Source: Spirogloea muscicola (taxonomy: Eukaryota). Taken from it: a stretch of DNA of 64,000 nt. Each line of letters opens with the position of its first letter. The first letter of the stretch is position 1. This document shows, piece after piece, positions 160 to 56,940 of the stretch. Location of the stretch: the NCBI GenBank assembly GCA_009602725.1, contig WELB01000010.1:574535-638534 (forward strand). Reading direction: 5' to 3'. Made by a program: the position numbers and the translations under genes. The notes under the pieces were generated by a model. That model did not search any database. It was not told the DNA's origin and saw only the letters and a program-made list of their open reading frames with translations.

Positions 160-1745
160 AGCATCTCCGACCTGCGGCTGCTTGGCAGAGGTTACTAAAT
201 GATTCTCCTGTAGCTCTTTGGACTTTGTCCATTCTTTTTTGGCTGGCTTCTGCCAGCCCCTCTCTTCTATGGGCGAGCTTTTTCTTCGTCACTAAACCCC
301 CCCCCACCCCCTCGCCCGTGTCCACTGCCCCTCCCTCCCACCAAGCCGGCGCTCCGATGCGGTCAGCAGTCAACGGCGCAGTATCACCTGGGGCCGCGCC
401 CTGGCTGCTGCTGAAGACGCCCTTTTGGCCGTTTCTGGCTGTGTGGGTTTGGCGCCTTCCGGCCCCGTGGACCTTGTGACTTCCTGGGCTGGCTTCCTCA
501 CAAGCCCCCACCCGCTTTGGAAGGGCTCACGTCTTCTTGGGGCTGGCCTTGCCTCTGCGGGCTGGCCGTGCTCTAGCTGCAGCCTCTGGCTTACGTCAAG
601 GGAACTGCTTTGCAAATGTTCCATATGCGGCTATCCATATCTTTCCAACGGTCCCAGGCTCAACACACAGTGCACTTGCAGCCATGGCACTGGCAAGCCG
701 TGCCATGGCTGCTGCTTCAGGGTCTCATTGTGCCTCTTTTCCAGCTGCAAGTTACTCCGACTTGCGACTGCTGACTCGTGGTTACCAAGCTCCATTCGCT
801 GTGGTCTCTTGCATAGCTGTGTGGTTTTTAGCGCAGTTAGACCTTGTTCATTCTTTCTGGGCTAGCCATTCACAGCCCCCGCCCCCTTTGGACTAGCTCA
901 CTTCCTTTCTCCTCTGGCTCTGGCCAGGGGACCCACTTCCAGGAGCCTAGCTTCTCTGACCTGAGGCTGCTTAGCAGGGGTTACTGAGTGATCCGTAGCT
1001 GCTTTGTTTCTTTGTGTGCTTGTTTTTCTGACGATTCCCCTGGCCCCCTTCTCGTCTTTAATTGATTCTTTTTTGGGCTGGCTTTTCCAGCCCCTATTCT
1101 CAATGGGCGAGCACTGTCTTCCTTTCCGGCTTTCAGTGCTTTTCGGGCCCTTTGGACATTGTCTTTGTTTCTAGGGCTGCTGTTCACAGCCCTCGCACCC
1201 TTTCTTTCCTTTGAACGAGCCACTTTCGTTGGGAGAGCTGATTTCATTCCGGAGCTAGTCTTTGTGACGTGCGGCTGCTAAATAGAGGTTACTATTGTTT
1301 ATCCTACATGGTACTTGCTTAATTATATCTGTCAGCGCTTTTCGGCCCCTTTGGACCTAGTTGGGCTGGCTTTTCACCACCCTCGCCCCCTTCAGAAGAT
1401 CTCTCCTATTTTTTGGGGCTGGCCTTTCACACTATCTCTGACCTGCGGCTGCTCAACAGTAGATATTGAGCACCGGTGGCCACTTGAGTCGCTGTGTGCT
1501 GTAGCGCTTTTCTGGCCCCTTTGAGCTTTGTATTTTCTCCTCTCTATTCTGGGCTGGCCAATCACAGCCATTGCCCTCCTCTGTAAGTCTGTCTCTCACA
1601 TGGAGTCATTCGTTCACAAGGCGGGTCCAACGCCGCTGGCTCGCTGGCCCAGGTTTCGTATACGCCTGTCCACCGCCCTTCAGCACTCCTTGGCCCACGC
1701 CTTGCATCTGCGCAGCGTGGAGCCCTTGACCTACCGCCGCCGCTC
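160..1745 (+). mobile_element. Head-to-tail stack of about 8 or more 5'-truncated 3' ends of a CRE-like (RLE) non-LTR retrotransposon, mostly UTR family 1
   Basis: Recurrent ORF ends DLRLLGRGY* (~168-200), SDLRLLTRGY (~756-787), SDLRLLSRGY* (~955-987), DVRLLNRGY (~1267-1294), SDLRLLNSRY* (~1437-1469). Each is followed by a GGGCTG-GC(Y)n-CAGCCC hairpin (e.g. 1075-1093). FRIRLSTALQHSLAHALHLR at ~1654-1713. Confidence 0.8.
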
Positions 1746-2263
1746 CTCGAGCCCGAGGAGTCCACTTATGAACAATCAATCCTTACAGTAGTTTAACCTA
1801 CACAGTAGCTACACTCTGTGCACCATTAACACCTAGATCACATCCATATGCCCTAGACCTCTTAACAAGCAGTAGTTGGACCTTTTCGCAAACACCAGTC
1901 ACACTGCCCTACTGTACAGTGTGCTTCTTTACAGCACTTGCTGACAAAATCAATGGTGTTGCAACCTGCAAGAGCTCCCAGCCACCCTACTGTTCTGCGC
2001 TGCTTCAGCCCCTTCAGCAACTGCCGTGTTGCAAGTCCCACTACAATAGGGAAAATCCTGAACGCTACAATCAGTTGAAACCACTGCAGTAGGATTGTGT
2101 AATAAATGGACAGGCTATTCTTATGCCCCTCTCCTGGCACAGCATTGCACCAGAGCACTGGAGCACCCCAAAGAAGGAATTATCACAAACATGGGCACAC
2201 GCATGTGCGTTTGCCTGGGCAAGGCCGAAGTGTGGTGCAAGAGGGCGCTCTTTTGAGCTGCCG

Positions 2264-5200: not shown

Positions 5201-6434
5201 TTCGTCTTGTCCTCGAAGTGCATGCTGTTCAGCTTCCGCAGAATCTTATGGCCTGCGACGGGAACATGAAGGTACATGAAGTCAAGTAATGCATCACGTA
5301 CAAGGTTGGCATCAGTGCTAACTTGCTCAGTGGCTGATCACTTGCTTGAGGCTGAAGTCGTCTGCACTTGCTTCCTTGACAGCAAAAAGGCGCTGAAGAA
5401 CTCACTCAGCTCATCAAGCTCGTGTTCCTTGCTGCTGCTAAAGGCAGCATCGGAACTGCGCCGCTGGCGGCTGCGGCGCTGCTCGCGCTTGAGCTCCTCA
5501 GCAAGAGGTGACGGTACCCCTGCAAAGCTTGTGCGTGGGGAGCTGCTGCGCTTGGCCTCGCGAGCCCGCTGCTTCACCAACCGCCGCTCCGCCAGCTCTA
5601 ACAATAGCGAAGTGTTGGGGGTGACACAGGAACCACATTGTGTAGGGCCGGTCAGACACAGGATGGAGCTTGGCATCGTTGCCTCGTAGCTGACCTGAAT
5701 TTGCAACCAGCAGCAGCACCTGTCTACATAAGTGACTCAAGGAGGAAGCACAAGATGCACGCCTTACCCTGCATCTTCCTTGCTGACGCTTTCTCGGCAC
5801 CTTCATCCAGCGATATCACGCTTTCATTGTCCTGCAAAGATGCAGGCCATTGACTGACATGAGGCGAGTTCGCAGGCAAGATGGTGTGTTGAGCCAAGAC
5901 AATGTGCAGTAGAGGCGAAACAAAAGTAACAGGAGCAAGCAAATGTCTTGCATATCATGCGGAGCCACAGGTGCTTACGCTTGGATAGTCCGGATCAGAG
6001 TCGTCAAGGTCAACAAGTGGCGTCTGCGGAGGGACATCATGAGATGTAGCACGATGAGCAGGGTTGTCCTTGCAATGTCGTGCAGCAATATTGTCTTGAG
6101 CAGAACGACTGTCAACCAGGTTAGACACATATCCGCACACGTATAGACGAGATGTTCTGCTCAGATTCGTGCACATCACCAAGCGCTGAACAAAGCAGGC
6201 AATGATGGCAAGAGGCGCATTGCTCAACGCAACTGACCCTGTGTGCAAAGCTCTCAATCCACGTGTTCTCCATGGAGCACAACGTGTTGTATAGGTTCTC
6301 AAGTCTCTGCAGAGGTTGCAGAAGCACTCCAGAAACAGCATCAGAAACCAGGCAAGTGGTATGATCAGCTGCTGAGCATGCCTGCAAGCAACATGTCCAT
6401 CTGTTCAGGTGTGACGGCATCTTTGGTAGCTGAC
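2264..6434 (-). CDS. At4g04980-like / CHUP1-C-terminal-domain proline-rich protein; multi-exon, 5' end lost in the gap at 6462, two apparent frameshifts
   Basis: Spliced motifs LKRNAKMGQMYRLIK, GMGAALEEITKK|SAFYKQVEEDV, FQTSDMNSLVAFRNKVDVMLEKLTDENQ|VLSKFPFPSKKLDTIREAA, IEFDFGILTRIKEAAV, AFNFNYRVYTFVQGQDD. Poly-Pro tracts ~4020-4135. Stop TAG 2264-2266; last exons 2264-2491 and 2799-2951. Confidence 0.75.
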
Positions 6435-6470
6435 CTGAAACATAGGCTTCTGCTCCGAGTTNCTCTAATT

Positions 6471-9400
6471 TCATGTTGCGTTTTTGTGCTTGAAACCAAA
6501 GTCCTCAAGCACACCCTGCAGCACTGAAGAGATTGTATCAGATTGTAGTGTACTGTTATCTCTGCTAATCTTCGGCAATGGAATTGAGTAAAATGTCCAG
6601 GAAAGACAGTGAAGGGCACAACATCTGCTGGTCATTCAAAAGTTACCAGAATGTCTACTCACAAGTGCGTCATTGATACCGTAGGCAATGCAGTAGTGCT
6701 CCTGCAAATGCACCATACATTTTCAGTAGTCAACAATCTGCAAGCACCTTGTAGACCCCCCTTGAAGTTGTCGCAACATGCAGATTGTCATGATCTGCTT
6801 CTGAATTGTACAGCAAGCCCCTTGTCTTAAAGGCAAAGCCGTCACTACCTGCATAATGTGCCACTCCTCGAATTCGTCAAACAGTTCTAGCCTCTCTATC
6901 CTGCACGGGCAGCATCTCAGCTGTTCAGCCACAACCAAGGCACATGTTCAAGCCCAAGAAACTTCTGCTGCGCTGCTGCGAAGCATAACCTCGTAGTATT
7001 GCAGAGTGAATGAAACCCTAGCCTGGACTGGCAGGACCTGCAGCTTGTATTTTTTGTAAAAGACTGTCTCAAACAATTGGAGATAAGCATCAATACCTCT
7101 TGAGATCTGTTTCATCTAAGGTGGAGTAGATCTCATCCATATCATGAGCCTGTGCCACCTGCACATGGCAATACGAAAGCTTGAGCTTGAGCCTGGAAGT
7201 TAGCACCCGCGTCACATCCTCAATGCAATCATCATCATGCAAAATACCGAACACATCATTCAGTACTATAAGAATTTTCGTGTATTTGAAACAAACGAAG
7301 GCCAAATGGCCAAGTACAAAGGCAAGCACATCTTAAGACCTACATAACCTACAGTAGATTGACCCGCTCAGAAACCGCGGGTCAAAACATAAAGGTCGCT
7401 AACCGATGCCTGAATACTAGGTGGCAGATACGAAGCCAAAGGAAGGACAATACTATGGAGTCGGCAGATTCAAGCCTCCAGGTATGATCACCTTCTATCA
7501 CAAGATAACTAAGTGACAGCTCAATTGACTCACCTTCCAGCCACAGGTTGTAAAGCGTCTCTTCTTGGACTCGAGATCATGAGTGTCTTCTATGCCGAGC
7601 AAAGGGCAGCCTCTGCTCTGAAACACCGCATGAATAGATGAGAATGAGCTCTTGATCAGCACAGAAGAGTAGGCTTGTCTCATGGCTTGTCCCAAGTGTG
7701 TCATTATCAAAAACCATGTCAAATGATTGTACTGGTTAGCAAAATCTAGCAAAATCTAGCAAATCCTGTTGATCACCTAGAAACGCTTCCAAAAAAATGG
7801 CGGATACCAGGAATTACCTCCAAATTCAGGAGCATTTGCTGTCCAAAGGGATCATGGGGTCGGATCTGGAATCAAACTTGACCTGATTATGATATACTAC
7901 AATTGAATTGACATGGGAACTTAGAGAACCTAATCAAGTGATCTCACCTTTATGCTGCAAATTTTCTACCTAGCTAAACACCAAAAGCATAGAGATCCAA
8001 CATGCACAAAAGAACGATAACTACAATTGACGTTGGCAGCTGATTGAAGGCCTGTGGTATGAATCTGTGGCCTCCCATGGACAGGCAGTGGTGTAGCACT
8101 TTCTGACGTGCACAAGTACACGAGCTGGACAATTACCTGCTCATATATGACAAAAGCGGCAGTTGTGAAATGCTCCCCTGCCCACTTGCAGATGTTTTGG
8201 CTGCTTTCGGGTTCCAAGTATATCAATACACACTCCGCCAGGATCAAGCTGGGCAGGCTGAAAGAGAGAAAAGAGGTCATACATGTGAAGTACTTCACAA
8301 CAAGCTGCTTACTAACGTGAAGATGTGTGGAGATGTGCGTGTATGTCCAAGCAACCATCAAGCTACAAATGCCTGCTCTAACAGGGGAGCATGCTACAGC
8401 TTGCTGAGTTACCTGACATCAACAGCAGCTCTGGCAAGAGCAGAGTCTAAAGACTGCAGGTCGCGTAGATCCACCGGTATGAGATGATACGAAGAGCTAT
8501 GGAGCTCACCCTTGTCTGCAGACATAAGTATCCGTTTGAGAAAGCCAATTTGGCAGGCGACGGCGGAGCCAGGTGTGCAGAAATGATGCAGAGCCAGACG
8601 AGGCCTATTCCATTACACATGCAGGACTTGAGTACGTTGGGAAGCTGTACGTACATTCACTTCCTATCTACAGCATTGGGCAAGTATTGTAGAATAGGAC
8701 TGAGATTCAAGTACCTGCATGTATGACTGGATCTTTCCCAAGACCTTGGAGTAGGTCACTGTGGCTGGAGATTGTGAAGGCCTTCCTGCTCGTCACCTGA
8801 ATAGAGGTGAATAAGGACAAACCGTGGCTGAGATAAGAAAGTCGCAAGCTGTACAAAACATGAAGGCTAAGAGAAGTGCAGTAGATACATACTTTTGAGC
8901 TAGATAGGACTAGCTGCTAACAGCCATCTGCTTAGAGCCAAAGGACCCCTTTACGGGTCCGAACGACTCCTTGCTTCATGGGTTCCAGGTTGCAGACCTC
9001 CTGGAAGTCCACCTCCACGTACTTGTATGGAGCACGTCCTTCTTTCTGCCGTAATTGTTAGTGCAATGCAAGCATGATATCAGTACCTGCATATAAGCAG
9101 CCGCATGTAGCTAGTTGTCATATAATGATGTAGATGTCACTTTCACAAGCTCACCCGCCGTGACATTGTTAGCACAAAGAGCGCATACACAGTACAACTA
9201 CATGACGACAATGTCCTTCAGCACATCTGCTTGCCTGTGTGCTGCTCTTTTTTCAATAGCAAGGTGGCAATTAGGGCTGGTAAGTTGGTTGCTACCTGCA
9301 ACTGGAAGAATGTGGTATCAAAACCAGCTCCTAATGAGATGACTTGTTTCTGGAGAAGGTGCTCTGTCTCTGCTTGTAGCTCTGCTTCCAAAAACTGCTC

Positions 9401-10165: not shown

Positions 10166-10346
10166 GTGCCGACAGTGCAGGCAGGTGGTGCACGGGCAGC
10201 TCTGCCACACGAGCGAGCACACCGAAGCAGACCGGCGACGGCGGGGCCCCGGCGGCGGCGGGCGCGCGGCGCGGCGGCCTCAGGCCGGCGCAGGTGGCGG
10301 AGGGCGTGGAGCAGGAGTGCGGAGCAAGTGGCACTGCTGGCAGAGA

Positions 10347-10887
10347 ATGCGGCTGCTGGTATTGAAAGAGCGGCTGTAAGAGGCCAGCCAGATGCATACA
10401 GATGCTGGTTACAGCCCGCTCGTCTCCTTGTCACCGCCGCACCACCAACAATGGAGCGCCCACCAGGGGCGCGCCGTCGCCGCCTGCCCGTCTCCCCCGC
10501 CGCTTCCCGTTCGTTTCATGCGCACCGTGCGCCTTTTCCTTGCTCCGGCCCGGTCCTTCCAGTTAACAGGACATTTGTAGGGCTAGAATTGGCCTCCCCT
10601 TCAATGTCATGCGCACCGCGCGCCTTCTTCCAGACCTTGGAGAGCAAGCGCGGCCAGATTAACTGGTGGCTGGGAGAGGCCAGCCCAAAAGAATGGACAA
10701 GGTCTGAAGGAGTCGGAGTGCTAAGGACTGAGACAGCAGTAAGCGAACTCTCAGTAACCTCTCGTCAGTAGATGCAAGTCTGAGTAGCTAGCAGGCGGAA
10801 AGACGTCGCCCTGACGGAAGCCGGAGGCCGCCGCCAGAGCGCGGCCTGCGCGCAAGTGGACCGCAAAAGCTAGGGACCGCTGCACAG
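10347..10887. mobile_element. Cluster of retroelement 3' ends (families 3, 2, 2, 1) in the divergent LCMT1 / ATP6AP2-like gap
   Basis: Family 3 terminus (-) ~10350-10410. Family 2 termini (+) ~10505-10540 and 10563-10626, the latter flanked by cttccag at 10556-10562 and 10627-10633. Family 1 copy (-) encodes QRSLAFAVHLRAGRALAAASGFRQGDVFPPASYSDLHLLTRGY* (10887-10751). Confidence 0.8.
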
Positions 10888-10888
10888 N

Positions 10889-10979
<91 letters not shown>

Positions 10980-14274: not shown

Positions 14275-14975
14275 AGAGAGAGAAGGCGCGGGGTGCGCAT
14301 GCACTGAAAGGGAGGCCAAGCCGAGCAAGTTCAATGTCAATACATACCATGTTCAATACAAAAGGCAAAGAAAGTGCGGGCCTGCACAAGGCGAAGCCCT
14401 ATGCTGAGAGGGACTTGTTCCGAAGGGGGGCAATGGCTTGAAAGGCCACTACAGATAATATCTCTGGAGAAGGACCGCTGAACCAGGGCCGGAGGGGCCC
14501 GCTAGTGCCTCAGCAGGTGCACAGTGAAGTCGGACAGGCTAACCTAGAGAGCGGGAGCAAAGCCAGGGAAGGTGGCCTGGGTGAGGATAATAGACGGGAG
14601 CGCCCAGTACGATGATAAGGGTCCAAGGGTCAATGAAGGGCCAAACCGCTGCGACGGCGCCGGGGGGCGGCCGAACGTGAGAGTTGAGGATTAATTTGTG
14701 TAGCAAACGAAGGCCAGAATGGCCAACGCCAACGGCAATGGCACATCATATGACGAACATCACCCACTGTTAAGGGAGATTGCGCGCGATAGGGCCATGT
14801 TGGGGCGGGGGGGGGCCCACCGACCTTGGGCGGGGTGAGGGGGAGGCGCCAACGGCGTTGGGGTGGAGGAGTCGTCGAGGCCTGCGAGCCGTCCAAGCGG
14901 GCACCCGTCTCGTGCCGTCGCAGAAGGAAGGAGCGCGGTGCGCATGAAATGAAAGGGAAGGCCAATGCGAGCCTC
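14275..14975 (-). mobile_element. Retroelement 3' ends upstream of PP2C (family 2 at ~14275-14405 and ~14922-14970; family-1-like end at ~14405-14455)
   Basis: Two reverse-complement copies of the ttggcctccctttca..catgcgcaccgcgcgccttctc terminus. One starts directly in the pyrimidine tail of a family-1-like copy. Confidence 0.7.
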
Positions 14976-15316
14976 ACCAAGTCCCGGTAACGGGGCAGCA
15001 AGCTGTCAATGGGGGTCTCTAGTACCCACGAGTCGCAGAGCGCTGGCGCCGCAAGCGAGGGCTTCGTCGCCCCCTGGCTCGTTCAAATGTCATCAGCCGC
15101 ATTCTGGCGCCCGTGGGGAGACGGGGCCCGGGGCGGGGCTATCCAGTGCCCGCGGGCGCGGCGAAGGCGGCGGCAACCCCCCCGGCCGGCCGGGCCCGGC
15201 CTCGAACCGCAGCCGGGGGTCGACAAAGAAACGGAGACGAGCCCCTGCCATCTCGCCGCCCCATCATTCCCACCGCTCCCCCCGGCCCGCCCGCCCGCCC
15301 ACGCCCACGCCGCCCN

Positions 15317-18564: not shown

Positions 18565-19590
18565 GCATGGACAAAGTTTGCAAGCTAGGGCGATTGGTGC
18601 TCTGGCCCGCTACCAAGGCTCAGTCAGGCGCCCTTGGTCAGCTGCTGCACGCAACGTGAGCTGGGCAAATGCCTTCCCCAAGCTGGACGGCTCCCAGTGG
18701 CCTGCACAGCTCGAGAACGCGGCTCCTATTAGGCAGGTAGCCCGCTTGAGCACGAGCCTTTCATAACAGGTGACAGCCAAGGTGGCAAGAGGGTGGAGTT
18801 GGCCAGCCAAACTCGTTCCAAACACAGGGCGGCAGTCGGGAGTGGCCAAGGCATCTCACAGCCCTCGCTCCCTCTGGATGCGCTTGTCGGCCCTGTTGGC
18901 GCCCTCGTCAATTCTTCTCGAGCTGGCTTCTCACAGGCCCCTTTGGGAGAGGGACTGTCTTTCACCCGCTTCCAGGAACCCAGTCTCTCTGACCTGAGGC
19001 TGCTTAGCAGGGGTTACTGAGTGCTTCGTAGCTACTTCGCTTCTTTTCTGTAGCCTTGTTTAGTTTGCACTCGCCTCTGCTTGAACTGTGTATTGGCTTG
19101 AATTGGCCTCCCTTTTCATTTCATGCGCCCCGCGCGCCTTTCTTTTCTGTGCTTGTTGTTCTTCGTACTTCCCCTGGCCCCTTCTCGTCCTTTGTACATT
19201 CTTTTCTGGGCTGGCTTTTTCCAGCCCCTATCCTCAATGGGCGAGCCCTTCTCTCTTTCAGGACGAGCTTATTTGCCTAGTGGGGCCGACAGTGGGCCAG
19301 TCCGGGGAGAGCTGCTTCGCCTTTGCCCCCTGCGAGCTGGCCCCGCCACGCGTCGTGACTGTGCACGTGGCAGAGCCGCGAGGGGCTGCGCTGACGAGGC
19401 GAGGTTGCCCCAAGAACGGGGCCGCTGCGCCGTCCGATGCAGATAAGGCGGCCCGGTCGTGGGATACCCAACATCCGACGGTCGCCCGGGTGCCGGCGCT
19501 GCCCGCTTGTGGCCAAAAAAATGAAGGAGCTCACCGTTCACCTGGCTGGCTTCTACAAGCGCTCTTTCCACATCAGCAGCCGCAGTCTGT
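18565..19590. mobile_element. Cluster of retroelement 3' ends upstream of the TSP9-like gene, including a nested insertion with an 11-bp TSD
   Basis: Old copy (-) ~18565-18720. Family 1 copy EPSLSDLRLLSRGY* (stop 19020) is split by a family 2 insert 19052-19139 flanked by ttcttttctgt (19041-19051, 19140-19150). Family 3 terminus ~19543-19583. Confidence 0.85.
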
Positions 19591-19650: not shown

Positions 19651-20388
19651 ATGGCGTCCTGGGGGCTGGCGGCCGGCGGCGGCGGCGCCGCGGCGGCCGC
19701 ACTGCTTGCGGCCGAGAAGAAGGGCTTCTTCCCGCGCGGCGGCCTGCTCGACTGGCTGGACGGCGCGTTCACGCGCGAGAGCGCCATCGGCGGCGAGAGA
19801 GACCCCGGTGAGGCGTCCTAGCCGCTCTACGCGCGCCAGCTTGTGCTGTGATCCGCTTGGCATTTTTGCTGGGTCAGGCGTACATTTTGTCTGATCTGAC
19901 AGGCAGCTCGTCATCCTGCTCTGTAGAAAGTATGCACCTGCTATGTAGCTTGCAAGGTGAGAGAAACATGGAATGGGTGTCACACTCACGGCTACAGTCC
20001 TTTAAGATTCACTGATAAGATAAGAAGCCAGCTTCTTAGCTCACAATGCGTGGCGATTGTTGTTGCATTGTGTTGTTGCATGTTCAATCAGCCACCAGAT
20101 TAGTGCATGCAGGTTCCTGAGGAACTCCCCGGGCCCTGTTTCGTATGGCCTGATAGACGCTCCACTTTGATGCCAGTGCTCAAGAAGGCGGAAGGCAAGT
20201 CGGGATCCAAGCAGCCAACACCCAAAAAACCGGCACCCAAGGTGCGAAATGTGCACCTTTGCTGAGCACTCACATGCATGACTAGCTGGCCTTCTGAATG
20301 CTGAGGACATTTTAACACAGAATTCCTGCTTGACTGTATTACAATCTTGTGCACCACCTGGCAGCAAAAACCGGCTGCCAAGAAGTAG
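19651..20388 (+). CDS. Small basic protein resembling thylakoid soluble phosphoprotein TSP9; 3 exons (19651-19807, 20177-20241, 20365-20388)
   Basis: Spliced reading EKKGFFPRGGLLDWLDGAFTRESAIGGERDP|VLKKAEGKSGSKQPTPKKPAPK|QKPAAKK* resembles the TSP9 core (DWxxG...ExDPxLKK plus Lys-rich tail). The N-terminus is short for a transit peptide. Confidence 0.5.
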
Positions 20389-20727
20389 CGGCACCTCCAA
20401 CGCTACACTGAGACATACATGGTGGAGGATACCCACAAGGATCTGTATCTTGACTGCCAGGCTGAGCTCCAGTGCCACCAGCACTGGCTTCTGTTGTCTA
20501 CTCGAGCTGATTTACGTACTACCTACCTGCAGCAGTTTCTCACTTGAGTAGACCTGCAGCATTTTCAAATTCTTTGAGGGCGGAGCGTGCCACCCCCTTT
20601 GTTTATTTTGGTAGTCCTCGGTCTTGACTAGGCAATGTGGTGATCCAATCATGTCGTTTGGCGTGTTACATCACAGACATATACTGCTTCAGAGCACAGA
20701 AAGTCAAGGGCCTTGATGTTGCTTTCT

Positions 20728-22992: not shown

Positions 22993-23169
22993 CGGGCGAG
23001 CGGTTGCCAGGCCGCGAGCAAGGCGGCGTGTAACGGCGGCGGCAGCGGCGGCGAGGAAGGCGCGAAGCTGGTGGAGCTTCCCTCCGCGAGTGTGCCGCTT
23101 TTAAACGCGCAGTTTCCCGCTTATGCAACGGCCACCACTAGCTTCCCCGGCGATGCTCCGGCTCTCCGT

Positions 23170-27099: not shown

Positions 27100-27208
27100 C
27101 CCTTATTAGTCTCCCCCTTAGCCAGCTCATTACCCAGTTGACAGGACATTTGTAAGGTTAGAGTTGGCCTCCCTTTCAATTCCATGCGCACCGCGCGCCT
27201 TTTTCTCT
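27100..27208 (+). mobile_element. Family 2 retroelement 3' end in the TFIIE-beta / ClpR3 divergent promoter
   Basis: gccagctcattacccagttgacaggac...gagttggcctccctttcaattccatgcgcaccgcgcgcctttttctctc, closely matching 31793-31878. Confidence 0.8.
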
Positions 27209-27362
27209 CACAGAGAGACGGCCCGCGATGTTCATGAATTGGAAAGGGGTGGCCAATGCAAGCGAATACATTGTCCAAAGAGCAGACACCGGGATGGTGG
27301 GGTGGCAGAAAGCCTGCCCAGCTGTAGGTTTAGGGTTCAGCAAAAGGTTAACAGTGGGACTG

Positions 27363-31878: not shown

Positions 31879-31962
31879 CGCCGCCACCTCGTCTCGGACG
31901 CCCGCGCCCGGCGGCCGCGGCGGCGGAGGCGGCGGCCCCCTCGCCGGCGCCTTCCTGCCGCA

Positions 31963-36505: not shown

Positions 36506-36689
36506 GGCGTGCCCTGCGGCAGCCCGAAGCCCGGCGGGCCGGCGCCGCCGCAGGGGGCCGGGGGCTGGCGGCGCAGGCCGCGACGCCGCAGCTCGGCCAC
36601 GCCCGCTCGCTACGGCGACGTGGTGGCGGACGTTGTCGTGGTGGCAGACGAGGTGAAGCCCGGCAATGGCAGTGTGAGGCCAGACAAAT

Positions 36690-37345
36690 AGGAATAGACC
36701 AGGTCTGAACGAGGTAGCATCTCTACAAGGGGGCGATGGCTGTGCGAGGCCAGCCCATGAGTTAAGGATTCCAAGGGCCGGAGAGCATGAACTACACCAC
36801 GCAACTTTCATGGATGGCTGCTCAATATCCAACAGCCGCAAGTCGGATTGACTAGCAGCCCCGAAGGACTCGCCCGGCTAATGGCCAGAGGCGGCAATAA
36901 AAGCACGGCAAGCCCGTGGGTGGTGCTTGCAGATGCGATGCAAGCACCTGAAGTCCTTGTAGCAGGCAAGAAGAGAGCGGCTGAGATAGTCGAGGGCGGC
37001 CGAGGTAGCCAGCCGAGTGCATGAAGATGGAGACGTGGAGTCTACACTATGCGGAGCTGCTGCAGAGCGAGCAGCTAGGTGGCAAGGCAAGGTGGGGGTC
37101 ACAGGCCTGACTTTGGGGGAAAGGGAGCGGTCAAGTGCCCACAGGAGAAAGTCGCTTTGTCTAGAAGGAGGCAGTGGCTTTGAATAGCCAGCCCGACATG
37201 AGTGGACAAGGTGAAGGGGGGAGCCTCACCACGGTAAAGCCAACCAAGAGAAATGGCTATTGCTGATAGCCACTGACTAACCCCTACTCAACAGCCGCAA
37301 GTTGGAGTGAGTAGAAGCAGGTAAGGTCGCCCAGCTGTCATTTTG
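36690..37345 (-). mobile_element. Older family 1 retroelement 3' ends upstream of the SAM gene
   Basis: Minus-strand peptides ASTHSNLRLLSRG* (~37320-37278) and AASQSDLRLL (~36860-36830). Reverse-complement hairpin UTRs at ~36735-36760 and ~37170-37215. Confidence 0.65.
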
Positions 37346-40529: not shown

Positions 40530-40675
40530 CGCCGTCGCGTGCCTGAAGCAGCGTTCAGAGCGGCCGATGGGAGTGGCATCCGGAGCTTAAACCCCGACCC
40601 CTGCGACCAGGCGGAGCCAGAAGTCAGCTGGGACCAACTGGAGAAAGACGCAACTGGGCGTGGTGGGATAGAGAA

Positions 40676-40920
40676 GGCGCGCGGAGCGCATGAAATGAAA
40701 GGGAGGCCAATTCAAGCGAATATAGTGTTCAGGCAGAGTCTAGTGCAAATTAAACAAGGCGACATAGTACGGTGGGAAGGAAATGGGGGACGGCTGTATC
40801 AGAATGCTGGAGAAATAGCTCTTCCAATATGAAGAGAAGAAGCCCTGCCAAAAGGAGGCGATGGCTGTGAAAGGCGAGCCCACAGGAGCAAGACGCTTTC
40901 TAGGAGAGGGCAGTGGCTGG
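40676..40920 (-). mobile_element. Family 2 (40676-40770) and family 1 (~40833-40920) retroelement 3' ends in the UTP18 / PES-like divergent promoter
   Basis: The family 2 copy matches the 19052-19139 insert and is flanked by ggtggga at 40662-40668 and 40771-40777 (imperfect TSD). Confidence 0.8.
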
Positions 40921-47049: not shown

Positions 47050-49850
47050 CTCTCAGAAGCCGGGGCAAGCTGTGCTGTGATAGGCCAGCCCCAACGAATT
47101 AAGTTGATGTTGGAATGCTCCGACACAAAGCGCAGATCAAAGGGAGAGAGAGAAGTGGCTCTCCCAATGGGAGCAAGGGCTGTGAGAAGCCAGCCCGAAA
47201 AGACTTGACAAGGTTCGAAGGGGCCAAACTAGGAGCTAAGCAGCGACTGCGGGGCCTGAAGAGGCAAGGGAGAGAAGCTTTTGCGAAGGTGGCGAAGGCT
47301 TCTAAGCTCCCATTCGCTGTAGCCAGTTGCAGAGCTCTTTCCAGCACTTTTCAGCCCCTTCGGATCTCGTCCATTCTCGTCGGGCTGACTTTTTACAGCC
47401 CTCGCCACCTTTGGATGAGCACTTTCACAGCTCGAGGCCTCCCGAGAAAACCCTTTCTTTCAAAGAAGGGCCGGCCCAAAGCACAGACAGGGCCTTAGGT
47501 CTTTCTCTGAGGCGGAAGCCTCAACACGAATCAACGAACGTCACTTCAGTGGGGACTCGGCCCTCCGACCACGGTCTGGGCCGTCGCACTCGAGGAAGCG
47601 ACTCTGGCTCGCCTTGAGGGAGGGCGCCGCGTGGGGCACATGGAAGTCATTGAGGCAATATGGGAAGGTCTCTCTCCAAAGACTTCCTTTTTATAGTATA
47701 TTCTCCCTTGTATAGGGCTTCGTTTCATGTAGCCACGTTATTTGCACTGCATATTTCGCACTTCGTGCTCAGTTGCCTGAACAATGTATTGGCTTGAATT
47801 GGCCTCGTTTTCTTTTTATGCGCACCGCGCGCCTTCTCTCCGGAAAGGTCTGCACCTTGTCTGCCGTTGTCCTGGGAGCGGGCAGCCAGCAACAGACCTG
47901 CAGCTCGATGCGTTCGCGTGGAAGGGCATGAGTAATAGAGGAGCAGCTCTTTCATTCTTTTTCCTGGGCTGGCCTCACCCAGCAACCGCCCTCTCATGGA
48001 AGCGTCTTTCTTCTTTCAAAGGGGGCAAGGACTGTGAAAGCCAGCCCGCAAGTATGAACAAGGTACAGACAAAGAAACAGCTTCTCAAAGTAAGGCGATG
48101 GCTGCAAGACTACAGCCCTAAACGAGTGAAAAGCCGAGCGGGAGAAAAGAAGATGGTATACACTTGAATAAGCTCCGAAATAGAGAACGCATGCAGTGCG
48201 CATGACGCAAGGGACCCGAAGCAGATCCAATCAACCTGTTCGACGAGAAAGGAAGTGGAAGTGCAAGGGATGGGGTTGCAAGTACAAGTTCCCTTGGCTG
48301 AGGGAAAATAAGCGAAGCTCTTGAAGTAGGGCGATGGCTGTGACGTGCCAGCCTAACAAGGAAAGCACAGCTGGAGGAGGGCTTGATTACCGTGTCGACT
48401 CTTTACGGGCTGGCCTCTCACTGACATCGCCCCTTTTGCAAGAGCTGCTTCTCCTCTGGGCTGGAATCTCACGGCCATCACCTTATTTTGGGAAGAGAAG
48501 GCACGCGGTGCCCATGAAAGGCAGTCCAACCCAAGCCCAGTACACTGCTTTTGCGAAGAACAAAGAGTGACTTCAGAGGGGCTAAGGTAATAGGACGCTA
48601 ACAAGTGCTGAATGAAAACTCCAGTACCCAAGAGTGAGCACATGCATATGTGACTGACTGATCTGGGGAGCCGGAGCACCACGCAAGCTAGTGGCCTGGC
48701 TTACCGCTCCCCCAGCACGCTGCTGTATGGCTAGAGTCAGGGAACGCTGCAAAGAGTTGCATTCTGTGTGAGCAACTAAAGCTTTGCGGGACATTAGCGG
48801 CCCAACTTAGACGGCGTTCGTCTACCAGCTGGGCCATAGCGATGGAGGAGGAAGGACCAATTCATACTGTAGCTGCCATGGATGTCCATAAGCACGGATA
48901 AATTGGTCTCCCTGGTGATGGTCCTTTCTTGTGCATTTTTTTCGGGCTGGCTTTTCACAGCCCTTGCCCCCATTGGGAGCGCCACGTTCTTTCTTCTCCT
49001 GCCACCGCCCTCTCCTGGTAGCGTCCTTTCTTCTTTCTTGGAGAAACAAATTCCATAATCGGCTGATTACAGCACCTTCATAGCAGCCACTGGAGTAGCA
49101 ATCTTCTTTAGCGCTTCCTGATCCCTTCTTCATGGGCACTTCCGGCCCTCCTTCCCCCCCCGCCATCCTCCTGCCCCTGCTGCTGCCCCACTCGTCTCGC
49201 AGTCTCCAGACGCTGCTAAATGCTAGCTGCTTCGTCATTTAGTTGTGCTTGCCTCTGCCTTGGCCATTTGGCCTTCGATTGTTTCATATTACACGATATT
49301 CTTCTTCCATTGTCAAAGCTCTTCTGGCCTGGCCCCACAAGTCTTCCGCATGCGCCTGGCCGTATCGCTTCAACGCTCCCTTGCCCACGCCGTCCATACG
49401 CGTGCAGGCCGTGCTATGGCCGCCGTCTCTGGGTCTCGGCGGAGTGCCTCTTTCCCTGAGAGTTCGCTTACTGCTGTCTCAGTCCTTAGCACTCCGACTC
49501 CTTCAGACCTTGTCCATTCTTTTGGGCTGGCCTCTCCCAGCCGCCAGTTAATCTGGCCGCGCTTGCTTTCCTGCAGCGAGCTACTCAGACCTGATGTTGC
49601 TCACTCGTGGGTACTGAGCTTTCCTCTGCATCGTTTCTGTGTTCTGCAGTGTTTTGTAGTGTAGTCCTTTCTCCGGCTCCTCTTTCTTTGGCTTTTGGAC
49701 TTTGTCCATTCTTTTTTGGGCTGGCTTCGCTTTTCTATGGGAGCGCACTTCCTCAAACTCTTAGAAGTTTGGGGGCTGGCCCCTCCCTTCTATGGCCGAG
49801 CACTTTCTTCGAATAACAGCGATCACCTCCTAAGGGGAGAGCTTTTCCAC
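47050..49850. mobile_element. Largest cluster of nested retroelement 3' ends (families 1, 2, 4; both strands), upstream of the bHLH gene
   Basis: Hairpin UTRs at e.g. ~47150-47230 (-), ~47380-47410, ~47790-47840, 48944-48985, ~49500-49570. Longest copy ~48925-48495 (-): DHHQGDQFI/VLMDIHGSYS..SLQRSLTLAIQQRAG..QISQSHMHVLTLGY. FRMRLAVSLQRSLAHAVHTRAGRAM at ~49344-49420. Confidence 0.85.
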
Positions 49851-49904
49851 GACCACCCAGTGAGCACGCTCAAGTCGGGCAGAATAATCTGGGGAGCGGA
49901 AGCG

Positions 49905-50110: not shown

Positions 50111-50491
50111 CCGCCGCAGTGGGGACCCTGCGGATGCGCCACCGCCGCATTGGGCCGCCGCCCGACTCGATCCTGCCCGCCGGCTATGGGGCTACTGGGG
50201 CTAGCGCCCTCATTCCCCCTCCCCCCAGCTATGGCGCCCAAAAGGTAGGGCTCCGTGATCTAGGGCGCGGGCCAGGTCCCCGCCGCCGCCAGCCGCCGCC
50301 GCCGCCGCCGTCGTCGCCGCAGCGGCTCATGCGGCGGACCCCCGNNNNNNNNNNNNNNNNNNNNNNNNNNNNNNNNNNNNNNNNNNNNNNNNNNNNNNNN
50401 NNNNNNNNNNNNNNNNNNNNNNNNGGCGGCGGCGGCGGCAGCGGCGGCGGCGGCGGCGGCGGCGGCGGTAGCGGAGGCGGCGGCGTGGGCC

Positions 50492-52124
50492 ATGAACTCG
50501 CCGGTGAGCGAGGCGCCGTGGAACTGCTACCTGGAGGACGAGCAGCACATTGACAACCTGGTCGGCATCTGGAACGGCCTCGACGGCGCCGCCAGCGGGT
50601 GGGCGCCGCAGCCCGGCCCCCTGCGTGCGCGCCACCTGGCCCCGCATGCCGGCTTGGTCTTCAGAGCTCAAGCTCCTGCGCGCTGGTGCCCGGATGGATG
50701 GTGGCGCAGCGGCGGTGATGCGGTGAAGGCGGAGGATGGCAGCCATGACGAGGAGGTGGAGAAGGAGTCGTCCGTCTCCAAGAAGCGGTGCGGGCCCCTT
50801 TCCACGCCTCCGGGCCCACATCGCGGCAGTGCTCCCACGCCCTCGTGCGGCGATGAGCTTGGCCGTGGGTGCCAGCTTTCAGCAGAGTCGGGACCTGGCA
50901 GCCGTGGCCCTCGTTGGCCTTCATACTGGGCAAAGACAAGCGAGAGCAAGCAGGTGGTGGCTTTGCAGCAGTCTGTGCTGCGTGGGCCACTTGAAACATG
51001 TGCTGAAGCCATGGAGGCTCCCTGAGGCTTGCACGCGGCGTGGGCGGGGCTGCCTGACCATGTCCGCGGCAGGTCACGGGACGAGTGCTGCCGCGAGGGC
51101 GGCTCTGGCAGCAAGGCCAATCGGGAGAAGATGAGGCGGGACCGGCTGAATGACAGGTCAAGACTCTGCCGGCACCCCCTGGGGTAGTCTTGAGTGGACG
51201 CTGCCTGCAGTAACAGTAGAGGCCTGACACAGCATCTGTGACTAACGACAGCCAAGAAAGCTGAGTTTGGGTGCCAAGGGAAGGACTGATATGAGATTGC
51301 CACTTATGAGCCTCAGCCGCAGCTGCTAGGCCACTCCGTTTTGGGAGAGTGCTCCTGCATCAGGGGGCGTATTCATTGATGTACTTTGGAGGACGCTGGA
51401 CCGTGGCACAAGCCAGTGGCATAAGGGCTGAAAGAATGGGTGATTTCCTGGGGGGGCATGCAGGTTCGTTGAGCTGAGTCAGGTCCTCGAGCTGGACCCT
51501 GGGCGGCCTCCCAAGACCGACAAGGCCAGCATTTTGAGTGATGCCGTCAAGGTGGTGGGCCAGTTGAGAACAGAGGCCAAGGAGCTGCGTGCAGGGAATG
51601 CGCAGCTGCAGGACCAGATAAAGGAACTGAAGGTACACAAGTCTTGCTGCTTTTACAAGAGATGGCATGGTAAAGTAGCCTTGAATGTCAGCCAACTAAG
51701 GCCTTGCCACATAGGGGTATGTGTGGGGCATTGCTTTCAGCCTTCCACCCGGATCCCTTTGCAAGAAGGCCAGCCTGGTGGCAGGTGTTCCTGGCTCTTG
51801 TGAAACTCTGACTGGATAGCTTGCTTGCTTCTGCTCTATGTCATCTTTGAAAAACTTCTGCAGGCGGAGAAGATTGACTTGAAGGATGAGAAGGCGAGGC
51901 TCAAGTCAGAGAAGGATCGCCTGGACCAGCAGGTTAAGAGCATGGCAGTGTCGCCGGGCTTCATCCCTCACCCCGCAGCCATGCAGGCGGCTGCCGCTGC
52001 GTATGCTGCACAGGGCAAGGGGGCTCCGTATGCCAGCTACCCAGCTATGCATATGTGGCAGTACCTTCCGCCTGCAGACTTGGATACGTCGCAGGACCAT
52101 GTCCTCCGCCCTCCTGTAGCTTAA
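50492..52124 (+). CDS. bHLH subgroup IVc (ILR3/bHLH105-like) bHLH-ZIP transcription factor
   Basis: SKANREKMRRDRLNDR|FVELSQVLELDPGRPPKTDKASILSDAVKVVGQLRTEA..IKELK|AEKIDLKDEKARLKSEKDRLDQQVK; C-terminus MWQYLPPADLDTSQDHVLRPPVA*. Confidence 0.92.
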
Positions 52125-52536
52125 CCAGCAGGGTTATAGGGTTGTGTAGGGTACTAGCATGTAGGCACATTTTTGACCCCTTCTCAATTCTTGCTAGAAT
52201 TGACATTTTATTGTGTGGCGGGGGGGGGGGGGAGAGGATATATTTCATTTACGGTTCACCTGCCAGTCATGATCTTTCTACTCCAGGACATCTTGTAGTG
52301 ATGTTATTGGTGCAGCTAGCCGGCAATCACCTACCTTGCTTTTGGCGTTTGACAACGTGGAACATCTCATCTGACCTGAAAAAGCTTGTCGCAGGAAGTT
52401 GTGTAGGCACAGTAGGCATACAATAAGCATAATCATGTGGAGGACCTCTAGCTGCAAAGTTGATCACTTCAGTCCTACAATGAAAGGCAGAGGTGGATGT
52501 CATGCATTACTGAGCCTCCAGGCCCACGCCAGCCAG

Positions 52537-55298
52537 TCACCTCGTCACCTTGTAGGCCTGGGTCATTCACAGGCAACACAGTGATTCTTGCATGGCACCA
52601 ATCATGCCTTTCTGAGAGGTATTGCATCTTAACTTCAAGTGACATATAACAGGTACCTCGCGGAACTGGCAACGTGTTGAATCAATGTTGCTATTGCAAC
52701 CATTACCGTGGAGGGTGCATTTGGGAAGTTCTGACTCGCTCACCTTCACTTGCATGAGCAATTTCTTGGCCTCAGGGTCATTCTTGAAGTGGTTGCGCAC
52801 TGGCTGTTGATGATGCCGAGGAAAGTAGGGTGAGGCAGAAGTCAAAAATATATAGAGCGGATGTAAGAGCCATGGATAGAGACGAGGCACCAGATAACGT
52901 GCAAAAGTTCAAAATTCGTGCTGGAAATGCTACTTCTGCCATTCGTGCAACTATTTCTATCAATACAATGAGTAAGACATTTGAACTGCACACGTCTTGT
53001 ATAGTATACGGGCTAGTACTAATCTTACCTGGAGTATCGCGTTAAGACCCTTGGCAAGGGCAATTTTAAGGTCCTGTGGGTGGAGCTCACCGGTCAGGTA
53101 ATCAGAACTGACCTCCTCAAAGTTTGTATACTCCCTGCCAAGAGAAAAGCAAGGTCTTACACACTATTTGGCGAGAGAAAAACTCGGAGTAAGTCATATT
53201 CACTTCTGAGTAACCAATGCATTGCGAGCAGAGTTGCTAAAAGGACAGCAAACTCACTTGTTCCCGCCGTGCAGCTCGCTTCGCTCAATGAGGAGCTTCC
53301 CAAAAGTGGGCAAAATAATGTACTGCACATAAGCAATGCAAGGGTTGCCTTCCAACACCTTCTCTGGGCAGAAGGCTTTCTTGATTTTCACATTGACTTC
53401 AGCCTGCACATTCAACAGCACTGCACATGACTTGATATGTGGATTATCAGATACAGCAGAGCACTGGGGAAATGCCGCATGCTCAGATGTCAGGTTCAAT
53501 CACCAACAGGCAGGGTCTATAGCCTACAGCCAAGGCAGGGCCGCTGGAGCAGATCCGGCAAGTCTGTGGAGCGTATAAGCAAGGGCAGTTGCAGGACTCA
53601 AGACCTCTTCATCCTCCATGAAGATAGCAGAATTTGGGTCACTCTTGGACATCTTTTCCTGCCCTTGCAAAAGACCGGGAAGCATATCTATTGGGTTGTC
53701 AAGAGCTCTCACACCACTGCAGCTGCAGCAACATCCTCGTGTTTGCACACTACATTCAGAGGCATGCAGAAATGGAGATCGCAAAAAGTGATTGTTATAG
53801 CCGTAGTGCAGCATCAATTATTGCGGATACGATGGGAGAGGATGATGGGCTTGTTTTTCCGTTTGATGTCATCGCAGTACTCCCGTGCTAGGACATTGAC
53901 TTTGCGCTGGTCCATGCCCAGCTGGCAAATGTCCGCCTGCACTGCACGGCGTAGGCAGCTCAACGGCCAATGGAAATAGCTTGCAGTGGAAATAACTTGC
54001 AGCGGCAAGTCCAAACGAAATAGAGAGCATGGTGATCTTGACGTGTTCAGACGGAGCGGAGACATCTGGGCCTCCTTGTGGACCACTACAAGCAAGGCCT
54101 GAGGTTGACAGGAATGCATGCACCGGATTTTCGAGCAGGACCTCAGGGTCACCTTGAGGAAGAAGATGTCTGCGCACTGCATGCAAGGATAGAAGATCTG
54201 GGCCGCCGACAGGTCGTCCTGCTCACTCCTCCCCATGATCTGCGAGCATCTGCCACCCAGCCCAGACCAGGCTGTTTTCACTGCCTGCTGTGGCGACCAT
54301 TGAGCGGCTCCTGCACACTCGTTTCCCGAAGCTCGCAACAAAGCTCGCGCTCGGTCATCTGACCTGATGATGCGTGGTAGCTTGTTCCGTGCAGCAATAT
54401 CCATGACCAGCGGCCAGTATTCCCCCGCCTTGGACGTGATCTCCTCGGACGACCACAGAAATTGGACACGCTCCAAGTCCATGCCGGCGGCTTTCCAGAC
54501 CTCGATCATGTAGCGCCCGACGGTCTGGATCTTCTTGAGGTCGCCCCCCATTTTGTTGTTGAGCTTGGCGAACCAATCGGCCACCCAGAACTTGAAGATG
54601 CAGCCAGCCCCCGTCAGCTTGTTGACGTTCAGCGCCTTCATGACGCCCTGCGAGGAGCAGACTGCCATGCAAGGGTCACGACTGTTCGAGTCAAACGTCC
54701 ATTTCGGAAGAGCCACGGCCGTTCTGGATTTGGGGTTCTGGGTTCTGGATTCTGGGTTCTGGCTACGTGAGTCTGTGGCTTGAGGACGAGGCCCTTCCAC
54801 GTGCACGCTAAAACCAGCAGCAATGCCACACATGCGGCCTCCCCACGAGCTCCTCCTCAGCCTCAGCCCGGCAATCGGCAGCACGAGAAGTGCTGGAAGC
54901 AAGCGGCGGCGAGGCAGTGAGCCGGGCGTAGGCAGTGGGGGCGGGTGCAGGCTTCACCTGGGCAATGTGCATGCGCCCGGACGGCTCGAAGCCGTCGTAG
55001 CAGACGGGGTCGGGCTTGCGGAGCAGCAGCTGCCGCAGCTCCTCCTCCTGGATGCACTCCTCGCCCACGCTGCGCACCTGCGCAAACCGCTCCTCCAGCG
55101 ACAGCCTGCGGCAGTCGGCAGCGCGGGCGCCGGCGTTGGCGGCCGGACGACTGCCACTGCAACGGCGCGGCACCGACAGCCCGGCTTCCCCGCGGTGCAC
55201 GGGGTGCTCGCCTGCCAGCCGCCGCCGCCGCCGCCGCNGGCTGCCGGTGGAGCTCCGGGAGAGGCCTGGGCGGGGTCCTCCCGCGTGGCGTCCGCCAT
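52537..55298 (-). CDS. TyrRS: Cytosolic tyrosyl-tRNA synthetase
   Basis: VGEECIQEEEL..CYDGFEPSGRMHIAQ|G; WVADWFAKLNNKMGGDL; QIFYPCMQCADIFFLK|ADICQLGMDQRKVNVLAREY; HHMLPGLLQGQEKMSKSD; C-terminus QVK|AYKVTR* (stop 52537). Confidence 0.96.
54721..54762 (+). repeat. Degenerate heptamer tandem repeat (TTCTGGG-like, about 6 units) in a TyrRS intron
   Basis: gttctggatttggggttctgggttctggattctgggttctgg. Confidence 0.7.
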
Positions 55299-55392
55299 GG
55301 CGGGCGCGGCCCGGGGCGCGGCCCGGGCGCTGGCGGCAGCGAGCCCACGGGCTGACTGTACAAGGCGAGGGGTTAGTGCCTCCGGTGCTGCA

Positions 55393-56940
55393 GGCCGCTG
55401 ATATTGAAAGAGCGGCTGTGAAAGCCAGCCAGATGCATACAGGTGTTCTTGACGGAGCCACAGGCTAGGCAGACAGTCAAGCGGCTGCTGATATTAAAAG
55501 AGCGGCTGTGAAAGCCAGCCAGATGCATACAGCTGTTCATGACGGAGCCACAGGCTAGACAAACAGGGCGCTCTTAGTACCCACGGGTCAGCAGTAGGAA
55601 GTCAGATGAGCCGAGGGGAGGAAGAGCAACCCCGCTGCGCAAGCCAGAGGCCGCCGCAAGGGCGCCTACCGGCGCGGCGGTGCAAAGCAAGCGCTTGGGA
55701 GCGCTGGAGGGACACAGACAATCGCATGCGGTAGCAGGACACAAGATCCAAAGGCACCGAGCCTCCAGGAAGTGCTGCACCCTGTTCCCAGGCCGCCGGC
55801 TACGGCTTGGGCCGTCGCGCAACCCCTCCCTTGCGGCTCTCGCTTTGTGTGCAACATTCACAAGCACTGGCCATTCATCAGCGTGCTGAGCGCGCTCCAA
55901 GTCAGGCCACCGGCTTCCGTGGCGGCACTCCGGCTCCCCAAGTTAGCCTGTCAGATTTGCATGTGCTCACCCGTGGGCACTAAGTCACACTGTTACTTGA
56001 GCCACCTTAGCATGGGGCTTCGTTTTTTCCCCCACATTTAGCGCTTTTGCCTGAACAACGTATTGGCTTGACGTGGCCATCCTTTCGTTTCATGCGCACC
56101 GCGCGCCTTCTCTCCTTGCGTCGTCGTGTGTGGGGCTTGTTGCAGCGTGCTCAGGCTCATGCTTTAAGCCATAAAGCGGGGCGAGCTCTAGTTGTTGGCA
56201 GAAGGGCTTGGTATTTGCCATCTGGTATTCAGGCATCAATAAGGGACCTTTATGTGCCGATCCGTGGGTACTGAGCGGGTCAAATTGCATTGGGTGATGT
56301 AGGTCATCAGGTGTGCTTGACATTTTACTTGGCCACTTTTGGGCTTCCATCCGATAATTTGAAGATATGCAAGCCCGCCCTTGCACCAGCTGGTCGAGCT
56401 TTAGCTGGCGGCACGAGGGCTTCTCCTTTGCCGTCCGGGCATCAGTTAGCGACCTCTACGTGCTGACTGGTGGTTACTGAGAAGGTCAGCTTAGCAGCAG
56501 GTGAGGTACATCTGTAAATGTGCTTGCCTCTGTACTTGGCCACTCAGGCCCTCCATTACTCAGCACACACTCCATCCCTCTCCTATGGTTGTGCTTTGTC
56601 TTTGGACGCTCCTAAGCCTTGGATGTTCGTCAGCGTGCTGGGCGCGCTCAAAGCCGAGGCCGCTGGCTTCCGTGGCGGTACTCCGGCTCCCCGAGTTAGT
56701 CTGTCGGATCTGTATGTGCTCACTAGTGGGTACTGAAGTCCCATTTCAGCCTGCTTTCGCACTGTTACCTTAGCACCCTTCGCATGGGCTTTGCTTTATG
56801 TAGCCCCACTCTTTGCACTAGCTTTTGGAGAGAAGGCGCGTGGTGTGCCTGAAGTGGAAGGGAGGCCAAAGCAACCCAGAACAGTGTCTGTGAGAGAACA
56901 GAAAAAACACTAGTAGGGGCTAAGGCAATAAAGGGAAAAT
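55393..56940. mobile_element. Cluster of retroelement 3' ends upstream of TyrRS (family 3 with duplicated UTR; families 2 and 4)
   Basis: Minus strand CYRMRLSVSLQRSQALALHRRAGR/ALAAASGLRSGVALPPLGSSDFLLLTRGY* (stop 55574), UTR duplicated at ~55395-55468 and ~55482-55558. Plus strand QVSLSDLHVLTRGH* (~55983), RRRVWGLLQRAQAHALSHKAGRAL..ASIRDLYVPIRGY* (56274), SVSDLYVLTGGY* (~56479), RVSLSDLYVLTSGY* (56736). Confidence 0.85.

Follow-up and report, generated by a model that had tools for sequence, protein, structure and literature searches.

Genes and repeat clusters of the window

This work concerns a 64-kb stretch of the Spirogloea muscicola genome (positions 574,535 to 638,534 of contig WELB01000010.1, GenBank assembly GCA_009602725.1; referred to here as the window) and the piles of short, truncated retroelement ends that lie upstream of its genes. 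All placement and age results given below come from this one window and from the copies resident in it. The window is gene-dense eukaryotic DNA, in which 16 spliced genes were traced from start to stop codon, the gene bodies so defined occupying 41.7 of the 64 kb. Pfam backs genes for PP2C, TFIIE-beta, Clp protease, CHCH, Aph-1, SAM, WD40, tRNA synthetase, and RETICULATA-like proteins; Pfam support is weak for the NMP1/AUG7 and bHLH genes. Other genes we take to be CHUP1-like, LCMT1-like, TSP9-like, UTP18, and PES.

The gene 5' ends differ from the gene bodies in composition: start-codon surroundings have a GC content of 71% and a CpG observed/expected ratio of 1.02, compared to 50% and 0.48 in gene bodies. 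Judged by CpG content, this CpG-island-like layout implies a host with methylated gene bodies and unmethylated 5' regions. Introns supported by RNA joints are 122 to 499 bp long, and the joints from run X5 are spliced at GT-AG. Among three genes with RNA joints (three introns being added by tracing), introns make up ∼60% of the gene span, which suggests, by extrapolation from these genes, ∼25 kb of intron in the window. Gene regions show ∼3 times the single-copy contig depth as well as diverged paralogous contigs (e.g., at 50500-55300), which fits a triplicated genome.

Element ends were detected by nhmmer at a cutoff of 12 bits using five profiles, four for types of 3' end (A, B, C, and F) and one for the end of the open reading frame (ORF). 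Across 10 shuffled windows used as a control, the top score of any model was 8.9 bits; the profiles were seeded with window copies, so matches to the seeds are by construction. This search retrieved 62 nonoverlapping 3'-end modules, together with 19 ORF ends. The original prediction, made from the sequence by a model, had listed twelve repeat clusters, and all twelve proved real by self-BLAST and a repeat finder, the 104 self-BLAST repeat pairs all falling within the listed intervals; one part of one cluster (18565-18850) held nothing. Not on that list were a thirteenth cluster (63574-63626), another copy beside a listed one (27213-27280), and two remnants (57051-57173 and 57636-57691). Over the repeats, summed contig depth, which is not a copy number, reaches 1.1e6, compared to ∼100 for single-copy pieces, and shows that many repeat copies are present elsewhere. 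Among 340 pattern matches in metagenomes, none was confirmed as a related locus. The features are as follows:

155-1749, plus strand: left-edge pile of eight A-type 3' ends and five ORF ends, with longer ORF remnants at 580-792 and 1623-1716; no traced gene 5' end
7267-7437, minus strand: sole intronic copy, a family F5 ORF end with a C-type 3' end, in sense within the LCMT1-like gene; possible 9-bp target duplication with one mismatch
10340-10406, minus strand: F-type 3' end of family F6, in sense, 172 bp from the LCMT1-like start codon
10503-10632, plus strand: two B-type 3' ends
10639-10887, minus strand: family F2 copy with 44 codons of ORF end, stop codon, and 3' untranslated region (UTR) with an A-type end; ∼90% identical to its gene-model relatives
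14276-15060, minus strand: three ends (two B-type, one C-type) piled upstream of the PP2C gene
18850-19262, plus strand: pile upstream of the TSP9-like gene, its family F1 copy (18955-19262) interrupted by a B-type insert
19040-19139, plus strand: nested 99-bp B-type 3' end in the F1 3' UTR, flanked on each side by a pyrimidine run; the uninterrupted form occurs in an RNA contig (joint 19039-19139)
19537-19592, plus strand: F-type 3' end, in sense, 66 bp from the TSP9-like start codon
20388-20728, no strand: convergent gap serving as a control, spanned by two RNA contigs that overlap
23165-24590, no single strand: pile of eight 3' ends, of either orientation, upstream of the AUG7-like gene, with an old ORF remnant (23858-24100) and an inverted pair (24253-24590)
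27105-27280, no single strand: tail-to-tail pair of B-type ends; the divergent gap that holds it separates the TFIIE-beta and Clp protease genes
31331-31879, no single strand: divergent-gap pile with two C-type ends in tandem between the units of a 12-bp direct repeat, incomplete A and F ends, and an F4-family copy that stops ∼50 bp before the Aph-1 coding region
36662-37318, minus strand: pile upstream of the SAM-domain gene, three A-type ends and two degenerate ORF ends, all in sense
40667-40918, minus strand: divergent-gap ends of types B and A, with the WD40 gene start codon 141 bp away
47074-49850, no single strand: largest pile, upstream of the bHLH gene, 13 3' ends
49326-49760, plus strand: family F3 copy, its ORF end split by a nested insert and followed by stop codon, 3' UTR, and A-type end
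49456-49571, plus strand: young nested family F2 3' UTR in the F3 ORF end, 116 bp, 98% identical to 10639-10754; contigs without the insert (joint 49454-49570) number 10 in X1 and 15 in X4
55388-55800, minus strand: family F6 copy, ORF end and tandemly duplicated F-type end, in sense, 93 bp from the TyrRS start codon
55800-56940, no single strand: head-to-tail F4, F5, F5, and F4 copies on the plus strand, then a B-type end on the minus strand
57051-57173, minus strand: old nuclease-domain remnant, 54% identical to P0035
57636-57691, plus strand: degenerate C-type end, 18 bits
63574-63626, minus strand: degenerate F-type end, in sense to the RETICULATA-related gene, whose start codon is 29 bp away

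Placement of the copies relative to genes

Tandem gaps contain 39 of the 3' ends and divergent gaps 13; a further 9 are at the window edges (8 at 212-1580, where no gene was traced, and 1 at 63574-63626), 1 is in an intron, and the four convergent gaps have none. Of the 53 nonedge ends, 52 lie in gaps holding a gene 5' end, and the promoter-side placement claimed by the original prediction is therefore confirmed for the window. Elements occur in 10 of the 11 internal gaps with a gene 5' end (the exception being a gap of a few bases near 6471), and for 15 of the 16 genes an element 3' end lies no more than 740 bp upstream of the start codon. The ends come as close as 29 to 181 bp to the start codons of eight genes. 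Gene bodies, on the other hand, contain only 1 of the 62 ends; among the 19 ends that have a sibling at ≥85%, 1 is intronic. This avoidance of introns is the informative contrast, and it leans toward a bias of insertion.

The convergent gaps had been offered as a second contrast. All four (300 to 547 bp) are indeed free of ends, but they are useless as a control: within gap 20388-20728, RNA contigs 20401-20644 and 20622-20916 (run X5), representing overlapping 3' UTRs, leave no untranscribed DNA, so that the comparison fails to discriminate. The claim that copies in tandem gaps sit nearer the 5' end held for 27 of the 39 ends, which are closer to the start codon than to the upstream stop codon, and not for the other 12. 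In all six tandem gaps, the 5' side has the shorter element-free stretch (66 to 737 bp, compared to 346 to 1,027 bp on the 3' side, where it includes the 3' UTR of the upstream gene). RNA-contig cover is low over three clusters; this was not used as evidence.

Identity of the elements

Six-frame translation of the window revealed one shared protein C terminus and stop codon ahead of several different 3' UTRs. A single window peptide matched a gene model in which this segment sits between two host genes, and a profile built from 12 window peptides retrieved 54 proteins at an E value of 0.001 or better. Sixteen of the 18 matches that were looked up are named S. muscicola gene models (EukProt); the other two, P0044 and P0051, look like low-complexity false matches. 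The named S. muscicola matches are spread over 21 scaffolds. These models extend the ORF upstream, where a cysteine-histidine knuckle and R-x-D...D...K nuclease motifs can be read by eye (in P0004, P0058 to P0060, and P0019). P0058, a mis-spliced, chimeric model with the same C termini, matches RVT_1 at an E value of 2.4e-4 (below the Pfam curated cutoff), and its two best matches in the PDB are R2 proteins (E values of 0.005 and 0.011). Its reverse transcriptase (RT) region matches two RVT_1 proteins, and a C2H2-like finger lies upstream of the RT, the order of domains within one element being uncertain in a chimeric model. For the low-confidence predicted fold of the nuclease domain (predicted local distance difference test score of 56), the top Foldseek match was R2Tg, with an E value of 0.004, a probability of 1.0, and a template modeling score of 0.43.

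Pfam gave no match for four window remnants or for the nuclease fragments, and the nuclease profile, searched against PDB sequences, gave a chance match only. Within the window itself, RT is absent and no intact full-length ORF was seen. The ESM Atlas returned unnamed eukaryotic clusters at 0.95 to 0.96, one set having RVT_1 in 18% of its members, and none with a clade label. The copies have variable 5' breakpoints, common 3' ends, and no long terminal repeats (LTRs) across the 62 3' ends and 19 ORF ends. We conclude with high confidence that the repeats are 5'-truncated non-LTR retrotransposons with a restriction-like endonuclease (RLE). Short interspersed nuclear elements or miniature inverted-repeat transposable elements were considered as well and ruled out, as the copies carry ORF remnants and match no tRNA or Rfam family.

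Membership in the CRE clade is likely, judging by eye from the RT motifs of P0058, which are nearer to the CRE1, CRE2, and SLACS rows than to R2 (rows from the supplement of PMC7650587). The initial description as truncated ends of CRE-like long interspersed nuclear elements (LINEs) thus stands for truncated RLE-type non-LTR 3' ends, with the CRE label likely on motifs read by eye. The fixed, multicopy insertion site typical for CRE elements was not found: the flanks differ from copy to copy, and the window contains no Rfam family or tRNA.

Several public gene models fuse element remnants to host genes (P0001, P0007, P0036, P0040, P0057, P0061, and P0062), and P0005 is a nine-fold repeat of one nuclease segment. 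Since remnants are fused into many S. muscicola models (e.g., P0001, P0007, P0036, P0040, and P0061), the public annotation needs masking. By eye, the remnants lie outside the host domains in the eight fused models with Pfam domains that were inspected; this position is subject to gene-prediction bias and was not used.

Families, anatomy, and nesting

Clustering of 64 C termini at 80% identity gave nine multimember groups that are 26 to 79% identical to one another. The window copies match eight of these groups well and the ninth weakly, supporting a lineage diversified into about nine families; the placement is common to all nine. Where the original prediction had counted four UTR families, the four tail types stand, shared among these families. 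A typical copy is ∼60 to 320 bp long and consists of a 3' UTR with a short pyrimidine tail, preceded by up to ∼70 codons of ORF. The tails are element encoded, because they are also found before purine-rich flanks.

Nesting was resolved for two insertions (49456-49571 and 19040-19139) through empty forms in public contigs. Both inserts entered pyrimidine runs resembling the incoming tail and have short flanking repeats. Flanking repeats of ∼4 to 12 bp occur at four junctions, their reading as target-site duplications being confounded by microhomology. The A- and F-type tails share a hairpin-like motif that is conserved in sequence only: RNAalifold found no consensus fold across 21 A- and F-type ends. 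A hairpin with pseudoknot, paired in 80% of cells, was rejected on account of unconvincing covariation (13 to 162 of 500 shuffles reached the measures).

Preservation and orientation

In tandem gaps, the preservation of copies tends to improve toward the start codon (P values of 0.005 to 0.03 by permutation within gaps). The observed gradient was reached by none of 2,000 permutations in a first version and by 14 to 61 of 3,000 in five stricter versions; with CpG sites removed, 39 and 92 of 3,000 shuffles reached it. The comparison of young and old copies, proposed at the outset to separate targeting from selection, was made within the window, where it places better-preserved copies nearer the starts in a pattern that selection could also give.

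All nine ends within 200 bp of a start codon point toward the gene, by a distance taken from the 3' end, which favors sense copies. A general bias for sense orientation was rejected: measured from the nearest edge, the count is ∼8 of 10, and per gene it is 9 sense versus 6 antisense, a weak trend only. A pyrimidine patch before start codons was also rejected as the target, the pyrimidine share being 0.43 to 0.63 in 15 of the 16 genes with no clear patch (upstream of the sixteenth lies mostly an N gap).

Explanations for the placement

The pile-up is striking in the window, and its cause leans toward insertion bias. The explanation that we hold at a little better than even is insertion biased to CpG-rich promoter chromatin, the piles growing by nesting. 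Intron avoidance, together with the weak age gradient, leans toward insertion bias over retention, and selection is likely to sharpen the pattern; the explanations weighed here are not mutually exclusive. Going by the established biology of the class, copying would proceed by target-primed reverse transcription from the RNA 3' end and would usually abort early, so that a copy retains its 3' UTR with no more than a few dozen codons. Chromatin would control the access of a nuclease with little sequence specificity, which would cut where DNA is open and unmethylated and would fail where it is methylated, in gene bodies. Fresh insertions would then fall close to the transcription start or in earlier copies, pushing older ones outward, where those would decay. 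A bolder version, which we put forward tentatively and at somewhat less than even chances, is that at least nine CRE-like families exchanged sequence-specific for chromatin-guided targeting of RNA polymerase II (Pol II) promoters, possibly through a methylation-sensitive nuclease. The upstream regions of nearly every gene would thereby have been rebuilt as time-ordered stacks of tails, a target-priming counterpart of Tf1.

Several points weigh against promoter-biased insertion. Methylation and chromatin state are read from CpG content only; the convergent gaps are uninformative, the other three being equally short; and the intron length behind the expected counts (∼60% of gene span) is extrapolated from three genes. 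The piles occupy most of each tandem gap, only the 27 of 39 ends mentioned above being nearer the 5' side, and a well-conserved copy (47151-47226) sits 3.3 kb from the bHLH start. Insertions within one pile are not independent events. The preservation gradient is carried by two of the six gaps (AUG7-like and TyrRS), is flat or reversed in both three-copy gaps, and is not significant when pooled (P values of 0.06 and 0.26) or at the protein level (n = 13, P = 0.39). Moreover, purging of, or selection against, old promoter-proximal copies would yield the same gradient.

Such purging is at the center of an account that we judge unlikely to be the main cause and still take seriously: broad insertion, followed by removal from exons, short introns, and UTRs, so that copies survive only in untranscribed DNA, which in a compact genome lies only beside promoters and grows as copies land in copies. 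This would agree with one convergent gap being wholly covered by overlapping 3' UTR contigs and all four being <550 bp, with piles that fill tandem gaps broadly, with the presence of one recent intronic copy (7267-7437), and with RNA-joint introns short enough (122 to 499 bp) for an insert to disturb splicing; the available text of PMC1635306 raises the same alternative for Entamoeba LINEs. However, purging must clear nearly all intronic copies (one seen, compared to roughly half of 62 expected by estimated length) and yet tolerate ends 29 to 181 bp from the start codons of eight genes, where selection should be strong. The genes appear to be present in about three copies, which should relax selection, and the single intronic copy, in sense, is tolerated.

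Alternatively, the elements might target one another, pyrimidine-rich tails and UTR tracts serving as landing sites and the promoter position marking only where a founder landed. We regard this as improbable. Both resolved nested insertions did occur at pyrimidine runs like the incoming tail, head-to-tail stacks are present at 155-1600 and 55800-56800, and Zepp forms nested clusters (PMC3446292, as far as its available text goes). Self-targeting predicts few large clusters, as with the one per chromosome of Zepp, and not elements in 10 of 11 promoter gaps; isolated copies exist (7267 and 63574), and tail-to-tail targeting was rejected on the junctions, which are not enriched (4 seen versus 2.5 expected, P = 0.2). 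Zepp itself is L1-like and not restriction-like. Most improbable to us is that the host retains copies as parts of promoters or 5' UTRs, with F6 ends perhaps supplying the transcription start. In four genes, the nearest element is F-type, in sense every time and 29 to 172 bp from the start codon, and the nine ends within 200 bp all point toward the gene. That cutoff was, however, picked after seeing the data, and the sense excess shrinks by the other measures given above. Copies also decay as neutral DNA would and vary between genes, and among the RNA contigs listed, none joined an element to a spliced first exon.

Relation to known systems

Most RLE elements are described as site specific for repeated targets (PMC4640811), and CRE members as inserting in spliced-leader genes (PMC1635306) or in telomeres and subtelomeres (PMC10088271 and PMC11413187), in the portions of these sources available to us. 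The CRE clade (CRE1, CRE2, and SLACS; MoTeR and GilM/GilT; Cnl1) resembles the window elements in having an RT, a zinc knuckle, and a C-terminal restriction-like nuclease; the window elements, in contrast, are dispersed beside single-copy protein genes, with about four ends per gene. EhLINE1/EhSINE1 of Entamoeba histolytica likewise have a restriction-like nuclease and are dispersed, intergenic, and near genes, and both tail-to-target pairing and selection against genic copies have been proposed for Entamoeba LINEs (PMC1635306 and PMC3118788). The accessible parts of these two papers report no 5'-side bias or nested piles, and the target there is T-rich, not CpG-rich.

The closest likeness in outcome is Tf1 of Schizosaccharomyces pombe, which inserts into tandem and divergent gaps on the upstream side of Pol II genes, no farther than a few hundred bases from start codons. 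According to the available sections of PMC7175516, Tf1 is an LTR element whose integrase is tethered by host factors, its targeting having been shown by new insertions. The window elements, by comparison, are of the target-priming type, with RT and nuclease, and targeting is inferred from resident copies. Zepp of Coccomyxa provides algal LINEs nested in one another, in one, probably centromeric, cluster per chromosome (PMC3446292). BLAG, a non-site-specific R2-like group, is evidence that site specificity can be lost in RLE lineages, but the text available describes it as randomly placed (PMC7650587); active hornwort genes (P3) also have upstream regions rich in transposable elements, but those elements are enriched in DNA transposons, by the accessible part of PMC10952607. 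A full-text search of mainly open papers found no promoter-associated RLE lineage and no account of these elements in this alga; the families themselves may already be catalogued elsewhere.

What is known of RLE elements concerns mainly insertion at fixed sites in multicopy genes, and tools for gene insertion are being built from them. Promoter targeting would be unusual for this class. If true, steering by promoter chromatin would be a different route out of site specificity and a testable rule for the gating of the nuclease. The host, a close algal relative of land plants, would have upstream regulatory DNA that is largely recycled retroelement tail, and differences in tail content between triplicated gene copies would permit a test of insertion-driven expression divergence after genome duplication.

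Further observations

A CpG-rich tract at 47520-47650, inside the largest pile, has no element match (500-bp bin observed/expected ratio of 0.85). It may be an orphan promoter whose gene was lost or is unannotated, and this would account for the well-preserved copies far from the bHLH start. Upstream of that start, at 50282-50500, an 80-base N gap separates facing GCC and GGC runs, and the assembly is uncertain there. At 10888-10976, an N followed by 88 A residues beside a GCC repeat is likely an assembly artifact and not an element tail. The Aph-1 gene has no in-frame start codon at 31930-31970, a GC-rich stretch whose frame is apparently broken, likely by an assembly error. At 6240-6475, an open frame that is possibly the start of the CHUP1-like gene directly adjoins the LCMT1-like stop codon; with neither a GC-rich promoter nor an element there, read-through or a two-gene transcript is possible. 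Finally, 24253-24590 contains an inverted pair of element ends (82% identical over 125 bp and 90 bp apart) that could form a long hairpin RNA if transcribed.

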